Shown: piece by piece, positions 4,437-4,475 of the stretch | How the letters are laid out: each line of letters starts with the position of its first letter | Position numbering within the stretch: the first letter of the stretch is position 1 | Source: Escherichia coli | GTDB lineage: Bacteria > Pseudomonadota > Gammaproteobacteria > Enterobacterales > Enterobacteriaceae | Length of the DNA: 7,050 nucleotides | NCBI RefSeq assembly: GCF_003334255.1 | Contig: NZ_QOWU01000098.1 | Direction: 5' to 3' (one strand) | Translations under genes and position numbers: made by a program | The notes under the pieces: model-generated | Told to the model about the DNA's origin: nothing | The model's database searches: none | The model's input: the letters and a program-made list of their open reading frames with translations, nothing else

Positions 4437-4445
4437 AACCATTAT

Positions 4446-4468
4446 CCCCCGGCACATTGCGCCGGGGG
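4446..4468. terminator. GC-rich hairpin between the convergent PTE-like gene and the ggt remnant; possible bidirectional terminator
   Basis: CCCCCGGC-acattgc-GCCGGGGG: perfect 8-bp stem, 7-nt loop, 10 bp after the PTE-like stop (4434..4436) and 8 bp before the ggt stop on the other strand (4476..4478). The U-tract is poor on the plus strand and modest on the minus strand (TTTTA after 8 nt). Confidence 0.45.
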
Positions 4469-4475
4469 ATGTCAA

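Follow-up and report, generated by a model that had tools for sequence, protein, structure and literature searches.

Our goal was to understand to which of two convergent genes a perfect, GC-rich hairpin belongs. The window, meaning the whole stretch of 7,050 nucleotides analysed here, carries a phosphotriesterase-related (PTE) gene on one strand and the 3' remnant of ggt on the other. A preliminary description, made from the sequence, held that both genes converge on a single stem-loop and that this structure defines the 3' end of an accessory operon. It further proposed that the hairpin was inherited from the ggt locus, and that the operon had been inserted directly downstream of ggt.

The window is a decayed Escherichia coli island adjoining cobU. 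It matches E. coli chromosomes in sequence searches, and its counterpart is GI-cobU, an island known from extraintestinal E. coli that measures 44 kb in CFT073. In a fully matching strain (our locus L001) the gene order beside cobU is an IS66 fragment, an HTH_DeoR-PfkB kinase, a GATase1-like gene and a DMT/YdcZ transporter. These are followed by an intact phosphotriesterase-related gene, the ggt fragment, an ISL3 transposase pseudogene and zinc-ribbon genes. Coordinates are collected in Table 1. Note that the operon is decaying in the window strain, with a frameshift in the kinase gene and an internal stop in the DMT gene. All four operon genes are intact in other E. coli, for example Ecol_AZ161 (L084, 3000-7042), where the block adjoins yaiO and not cobU. 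A literature search found no description of the four-gene operon or of the junction between PTE and the ggt stub (ggt').

Table 1. Features of the window, with positions counted from its first nucleotide.
Feature	Position	Strand	Detail
IS66-family fragment, left flank of the imported block	88..291		sequence match
Operon upstream region, left end of the imported block	297..391	+	89% identical to S. diarizonae; palindrome GTGATTATCAC at 334-344
HTH_DeoR-PfkB (ribokinase-like) fusion gene, operon gene 1	392..1605	+	frameshifted: 392-835 + 880-1605
GATase1-like gene (PF07090), 252 aa	1619..2377	+	open reading frame in the window
DMT/YdcZ-family transporter gene	2434..3399	+	internal stop: 2434-3042 + 3136-3399
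Phosphotriesterase-related gene (PF02126), intact, last of the operon	3402..4436	+	domain match
Spacer	4437..4475		10-nt tails after the stem: + GTCAATTAAT, - AATGGTTTTA
Stem-loop	4444..4470		arms ATCCCCCGGC / GCCGGGGGAT; compensatory changes in seven lineages
ggt 3' stub, foreign	4476..4774	-	frameshifted, 12-nt deletion, without 5' part or promoter
ISL3-family transposase pseudogene, truncates the ggt stub	4794..6562	-	sequence match

The two genes do converge over a short gap. Read directly from the sequence, however, the spacer between their stop codons is 39 nt, and not 40 as first described. To its left is the PTE stop codon (TAA, 4434-4436, + strand). To its right, the ggt fragment on the minus strand ends ...DDLTAGY*, with the stop codon at 4476-4478. 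The core of the hairpin is formed by CCCCCGGC (4446-4453), which pairs with GCCGGGGG (4461-4468) through eight perfect G-C pairs. Hence, the GC stem-loop originally placed at 4446..4468 is real. An A-T and a T-A pair lengthen this core, and the perfect stem in fact comprises 10 bp (4444-4453/4461-4470) with a 7-nt loop. In the minus-strand RNA the stem extends to 12 bp, including one G-U pair that closes a 3-nt loop. The structure starts 7 nt past the PTE stop codon and 5 nt past that of ggt'.

Predicted folding energies are -22.4 kcal/mol for the plus strand (z = -4.3) and -24.6 kcal/mol for the minus strand (z = -4.7). None of 200 shuffled sequences folded as well. The hairpin is also the longest inverted repeat of the window. 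When the whole 7-kb window was shuffled with dinucleotide content preserved, a perfect stem of at least 10 bp arose somewhere in 12 of 300 cases. A perfect stem of this length with at least eight G-C pairs arose in none of the 300, and the hairpin is the best perfect hairpin in the window.

The structure is conserved wherever the operon neighbours ggt in our sample. We made an ungapped alignment of seven distinct operon-linked hairpins, which is a small sample, and scored it on a 12-pair stem. The seven independent lineages are the window, S. diarizonae (L003/L107), three from Citrobacter (L004, L005 and L006/L108), Salmonella L106/L095, and S. bongori (L104/105). In all of them the hairpin is at the same place and the CCCGG/CCGGG core is invariant. 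Standard pairs occupy 84.5% of the cells in the seven-hairpin alignment, compared with 30-44% if partners are slid by 1-3 columns. Both sides have changed in 5 of the 12 pairs; for instance, pair 8/28 is G-C, A-U or C-G, and pair 14/22 alternates between U-A and C-G. Covariation scores 0.302 for this alignment, whereas shuffles give 0.144 +/- 0.040; none of 500 shuffles, and none of the slid controls, reached the observed value. Since the substitutions are compensatory, and pairing is kept, selection would be on the structure rather than on a recognition sequence. The pattern thus points to a selected RNA or DNA hairpin and not to a sequence-specific site.

We also asked whether the hairpin belongs to a catalogued class. 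A search of Rfam returned no family at the gathering threshold; what hits there were at E below 1 did not rise above chance level. Like REP/BIME palindromes, the hairpin is extragenic, GC-rich and located between convergent genes. Unlike them, it occurs about once per genome and has neither the REP consensus nor an Rfam match. Being single-copy, and matching nothing in Rfam, it is not a REP-type repeat or a known RNA.

To find native loci, species-representative genomes were scanned with the PTE protein and exact-protein look-ups were made. In Citrobacter spp., S. diarizonae and other Salmonella lineages, this four-gene operon is flanked by yhhY and an intact ggt. Here, the conserved backbone reads gntR-yhhW-yhhX-yhhY-[operon]-ggt-yhhA-ugpQ-ugpC, and the PTE and ggt stop codons are 38-44 nt apart. 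S. bongori has the operon in the same backbone, with a decayed Hcp-effector cassette between operon and ggt. Native operon genes share 74-79% nucleotide identity with the window. S. bongori and Citrobacter have diverged from each other to a comparable degree, and the value is slightly below that of backbone genes. Divergence of this size fits long co-divergence. The native home of the uncharacterised kinase/GATase/DMT/PTE operon is the yhhY-ggt slot of Citrobacter and some Salmonella. These loci provide a clean set for study of the operon, or of terminators shared between convergent genes.

It follows that an operon immediately downstream of ggt is a genuine and ancient arrangement, though one of donor-type chromosomes. 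Insertion next to ggt, as originally proposed, therefore stands only in part. Native Citrobacter and Salmonella loci do juxtapose the two, but in this genome operon and stub were imported together, and an intact resident ggt is present at another place.

Across Enterobacteriaceae, the slot between yhhY and ggt is a hotspot for cassettes (L082 7325-11268, L085-L088, L089 7743-10308, L092 7755-11019, L104 7036-8718). Its contents range from the PTE operon and orphan Hcp-effector/immunity cassettes to DUF4225 genes, IS1 or nothing at all. K-12 has tssD-yrhA-IS1-yrhD-yrhB in this position, while S. enterica, salamae and houtenae have an Hcp-Gln_amidase/Imm35 cassette. Kluyvera carries Hcp/DUF4225, O157 carries a DUF4225 gene, and the slot is empty in some E. 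coli. Homology between the different cassette types stops within a few nucleotides of the ggt stop codon. The operon was expected beside ggt in S. enterica genomes of the LT2 type. This expectation was dropped, because the retrieved S. enterica, salamae and houtenae loci have the Hcp-Gln_amidase/Imm35 cassette instead.

The type of hairpin beside ggt differs according to whether the operon is there. In loci without the operon a GCCCTC-type hairpin is found, in the ggt sense, 4-8 nt past the stop codon. K-12 and O157 NE122 have GCCCTCTTC-GTGG-GAAGAGGGC. S. enterica has GCCCTCTTC-GGTG-GAAGAGGGC, its stem being identical to that of K-12 across genera, and salamae and houtenae have GCCCTCTTC-N4-GAAGAGGGC. 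The equivalent arms are GGCCCTTT..AAAGGGCC in Kluyvera, and TTAAGCCCTC..GAGGGCTTAA in empty-slot E. coli and O157 TR01. Within E. coli, the GCCCTC-type hairpin stays with ggt as the neighbouring DNA varies. Operon-bearing loci all have a hairpin with the CCCGG..CCGGG core. This is GACCCGGCG..CGCCGGGTC in S. diarizonae and (A)GCCCGGTG..CACCGGGC(T) in Citrobacter and Salmonella L106. Neither the window nor the Citrobacter and diarizonae loci have the GCCCTC type. In S. bongori the two types stand apart: the CCCGG-type hairpin (AACCCGGT..ACCGGGTT) is 9 nt past the PTE stop codon, and the GCCCTC-type hairpin (AGCCCTCT..AGAGGGCT) is 7 nt from the ggt stop codon. The link between operon and CCCGG type is drawn from about 7 operon-bearing and about 10 operon-less loci.

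Compared with the ggt hairpins, the window hairpin has a different stem sequence, and homology to the resident ggt begins exactly at the stop codon (4476). The homology of operon-bearing to operon-less Salmonella likewise breaks right at the ggt stop codon. Where the operon lies away from ggt, in Proteus and Providencia, it has its own canonical hairpin and T-run, 40-70 nt after PTE. Hence, the operon normally brings a terminator. Together, the separation seen in S. bongori, and the tracking of hairpin type with operon presence, argue that the window hairpin belongs to the operon. The proposal that it was inherited from ggt is thus not supported, since all sampled operon-less ggt loci have the GCCCTC type instead and S. 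bongori keeps both types apart. The preliminary description had itself suggested comparison with the region downstream of ggt in relatives lacking the operon; what this comparison reveals is a different hairpin, and no CCCGG type. Note that the GCCCTC hairpin could be a property of the Hcp cassettes rather than of ggt, though it is also present in empty-slot E. coli. Assigning the window hairpin to the operon rather than to ggt matters little beyond annotation.

We turn now to the ggt remnant, which was identified correctly: positions 4476-4769 share 92.5% identity with the final 295 nt of the K-12 gene. Compared with ggt, the stub has a 1-nt frameshift and a 12-nt deletion. It is 299 nt long and breaks off at about 4774, immediately ahead of the ISL3-family transposase pseudogene. 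Its identity to Citrobacter and Salmonella ggt is 81-86%. Island copies of the stub are 98.6-100% identical among themselves, but only 90.8-92.9% identical to any resident E. coli ggt, and so the stub is foreign. Nearly all genomes keep an intact resident ggt elsewhere. Judged by these identities, the stub stands nearer to Escherichia than to either Citrobacter or Salmonella. Among 5426 complete E. coli genomes, 2666 carry the junction of PTE, hairpin and ggt' (window 4395-4500). In 2650 of these carriers its identity reaches at least 99%; the median is one copy per genome and the maximum two. We conclude that a block of ~4.5 kb (window ~297-4774), comprising operon and ggt stub, was imported together into the cobU island between the IS66 and ISL3 fragments. 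This explains the odd ggt stub that about half of E. coli genomes contain: it is part of a donor's ggt locus that hitch-hiked with the operon.

Searches with a repaired translation of the stub gave short fragments only, and no donor. Similarly, in the PTE scan of species-representative genomes no Escherichia species had the operon, and an Escherichia-like donor was not found. Two candidates were rejected. Locus L100 (CP123274.1) is a K-12-like genome with a stub-type tract at ggt nucleotides 1456-1715, the K-12 hairpin and yrhB as neighbour; it is a recombinant. Its resident ggt (L100 10001-11743) is intact, and the stub-type alleles at 1456-1715 match window 4476-4769 at 99.3% identity. This resembles gene conversion of the live gene by the pseudogene stub, or by a similar donor. 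Locus L101 (10001-12425; ENA ERZ1743984 NODE_1596, a metagenome contig at 4.5x) is probably an assembly chimera. It passes from an E. coli-like ggt to the island PTE, and the switch falls in the sole 50-nt stretch that is identical between resident ggt and stub.

What might the hairpin do? Its stem and loop lie within the range of intrinsic terminators (stem about 5-14 bp, loop 3-8 nt) on both strands. On the plus strand, which is the operon sense, the tail GUCAAUUAAU contains four U but no run, and falls short of a U-tract. On the minus strand, the ggt sense, the tail AAUGGUUUUA contains five U including a UUUU run, which begins 5 nt after the stem; the asymmetry between the strands is slight. 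A consensus terminator scan, which requires at least 5 T in 8, flagged only the minus strand, with a 12-bp stem; the plus strand was not called. Most ggt-adjacent loci, including Citrobacter, have the T-richer tail on the ggt-sense strand, and this fits a hairpin that works mainly for ggt. The structure resembles Rho-independent terminators of Enterobacteriaceae in its GC-rich stem of 10-12 bp, its short loop, its place a few nucleotides past a stop codon, and its maintenance by compensatory changes. The U-containing minus-strand tail is a further likeness. It differs in having no canonical U-tract on the operon strand and a minus-strand U run offset by 5 nt. Intrinsic termination of the operon, with no good U-tract on the plus strand, may be weak.

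The hairpin is conserved, and no other structure is a plausible 3' end for the operon, in keeping with the claim that the operon ends there. On balance, we think it probable that the hairpin is the operon's own 3'-terminal stem-loop, of terminator type, which travels with the operon and was shared with ggt ancestrally. From its form and conservation, we infer that it would terminate transcription or stabilise mRNA. The feature itself is real, and is an ordinary terminator-like hairpin that implies no new mechanism. Any function may have been lost in the window strain, since two of its four operon genes are broken.

A history consistent with this assignment can be outlined. In the ancestral chromosome, the operon would fill the slot between yhhY and ggt, with one hairpin between the convergent PTE and ggt genes. 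This hairpin would be a shared and roughly symmetric terminator of both transcripts, ggt's GCCCTC-type hairpin being absent. At such native loci, it could act as a classical intrinsic terminator for ggt, and as a hairpin-dependent stop or 3' stabiliser for the operon. An Escherichia-like donor would then have given the block of ~4.5 kb (~297-4774), which carried the promoter region, the operon with its hairpin, and ~299 nt from the 3' end of ggt. This block would have settled between the IS66 and ISL3 fragments of the E. coli cobU island. In the island, the plus-strand hairpin would form or stabilise the 3' end of the operon mRNA. Since the ggt stub lacks a promoter, its side of the terminator would be vestigial, and any minus-strand role would only be against incoming transcription. 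Specifically, the hairpin would stop transcription from the ISL3 and zinc-ribbon side that runs antisense into the operon.

Other readings were weighed against this one. The strongest is that the hairpin is ggt's own intrinsic terminator, in place downstream of ggt before the operon was inserted, and merely borrowed by the operon. The terminator scan makes its call solely in the ggt sense, with the 12-bp stem and tail AATGGTTTTA, and it is the minus-strand fold that is more stable (-24.6 versus -22.4 kcal/mol). The hairpin sits 5 nt past the ggt stop, much as the K-12 hairpin does at 8 nt, and Citrobacter likewise has its T-rich tail on the ggt-sense strand. Even so, we regard this reading as unlikely. 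Operon-less E. coli, in four contexts, as well as S. enterica, salamae, houtenae and Kluyvera, have the GCCCTC type and never CCCGG. The stem shared by K-12 and S. enterica marks the GCCCTC hairpin as the conserved ggt-side structure, and in S. bongori each hairpin abuts its own gene, at 9 nt from PTE and 7 nt from ggt. In addition, the homology between operon-bearing and operon-less Salmonella ends right at the ggt stop codon. A different view is that the structure was a terminator in the donor but is now an inert relic, with no role in a decaying E. coli island beside a promoterless ggt stub. The broken kinase and DMT genes, the truncated ggt, the ISL3 pseudogene and the lack of a plus-strand U-tract all accord with this view. 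Set against this are the near-identity of the junction among its carriers, though recent common descent may explain it, and the strains with all four operon genes intact, in which a 3' hairpin would still matter. Inertness is, in our judgement, distinctly improbable.

The palindrome might instead act as DNA, by binding a protein, as a repeat of the REP kind, or as a site of recombination that marks the cassette boundary in the yhhY-ggt slot. We find this scarcely credible. The slot is indeed a hotspot of varied cassettes, whose homology ends a few nucleotides from the ggt stop, by the hairpin. However, an element found once per genome does not form a repeat family, no Rfam family matches, and the stem substitutions are compensatory and keep pairing. 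A bolder version is a long shot, and would see in the short GC hairpins next to the ggt stop more than terminators, namely functional ends of cassettes that are exchanged in the hotspot. Each cassette would bring its own hairpin, and the hairpin or a cruciform would help to set the break at the ggt stop. If so, the copy in the E. coli island would be a cassette excised with 299 nt of its neighbour. Assignment to the operon remains the reading that we prefer.

Comparison with known systems places the hairpin among familiar structures. For E. coli, terminators that act in both directions between convergent genes form an established class (Ju et al. 2019, as summarised in bioRxiv 10.1101/2022.10.23.513370, with an RNA polymerase collision model). 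The native loci, and formally also the window, are alike in having a single hairpin in a very short spacer of 38-44 nt between convergent genes. The window differs in that its ggt is a stub without a promoter; neither convergent transcription nor collision of RNA polymerases would be expected here unless there is read-through from the ISL3 side. The ggt hairpin of K-12 and S. enterica (GCCCTCTTC-N4-GAAGAGGGC, with a T-rich tail) matches the window hairpin in size and in its position with respect to the ggt stop (8 versus 5 nt). In K-12 it also faces a convergent neighbour, yrhB, across a 37-nt spacer. Its stem sequence, by contrast, is unrelated, and it occurs with the operon only in S. bongori, where both hairpins are side by side. 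The hairpin of the window is no copy of it.

Some further observations concern the spacer and the operon. The motifs GGGAAT and TTTGCA/CAATTCA, beside the CCCGG hairpin, have switched side or strand in S. bongori (L104 7036-7095) compared with S. diarizonae (L003 9036-9073) and Citrobacter. This reversal could reflect a small inversion of the spacer or, the motifs being short, a chance match. Inversion of the S. bongori spacer relative to S. diarizonae is less favoured, because loop and 5' arm, when compared with Citrobacter (CCCGGTGCC), speak for an unchanged orientation. The PTE genes of S. bongori (L104 6001-7035) and S. diarizonae (L003 8001-9035) are only 78% identical, whereas identity is 87-90% for the three genes that precede PTE in the operon. 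This gap suggests recombination inside the operon. Close homologues of the PTE-like protein, with 45-64% amino-acid identity over their full length, are common in Actinobacteria, including Georgenia, Actinotignum, Streptomyces and Pseudonocardia (loci L022-L079); the protein is an uncharacterised enzyme spread widely across phyla. Finally, the region upstream of the operon is more similar to S. diarizonae than are the coding regions (89% versus only 74-79% identity). It contains a T-rich run at 298-318, and its perfect 11-bp palindrome, GTGATTATCAC, may be a candidate operator of the DeoR-PfkB fusion regulator.
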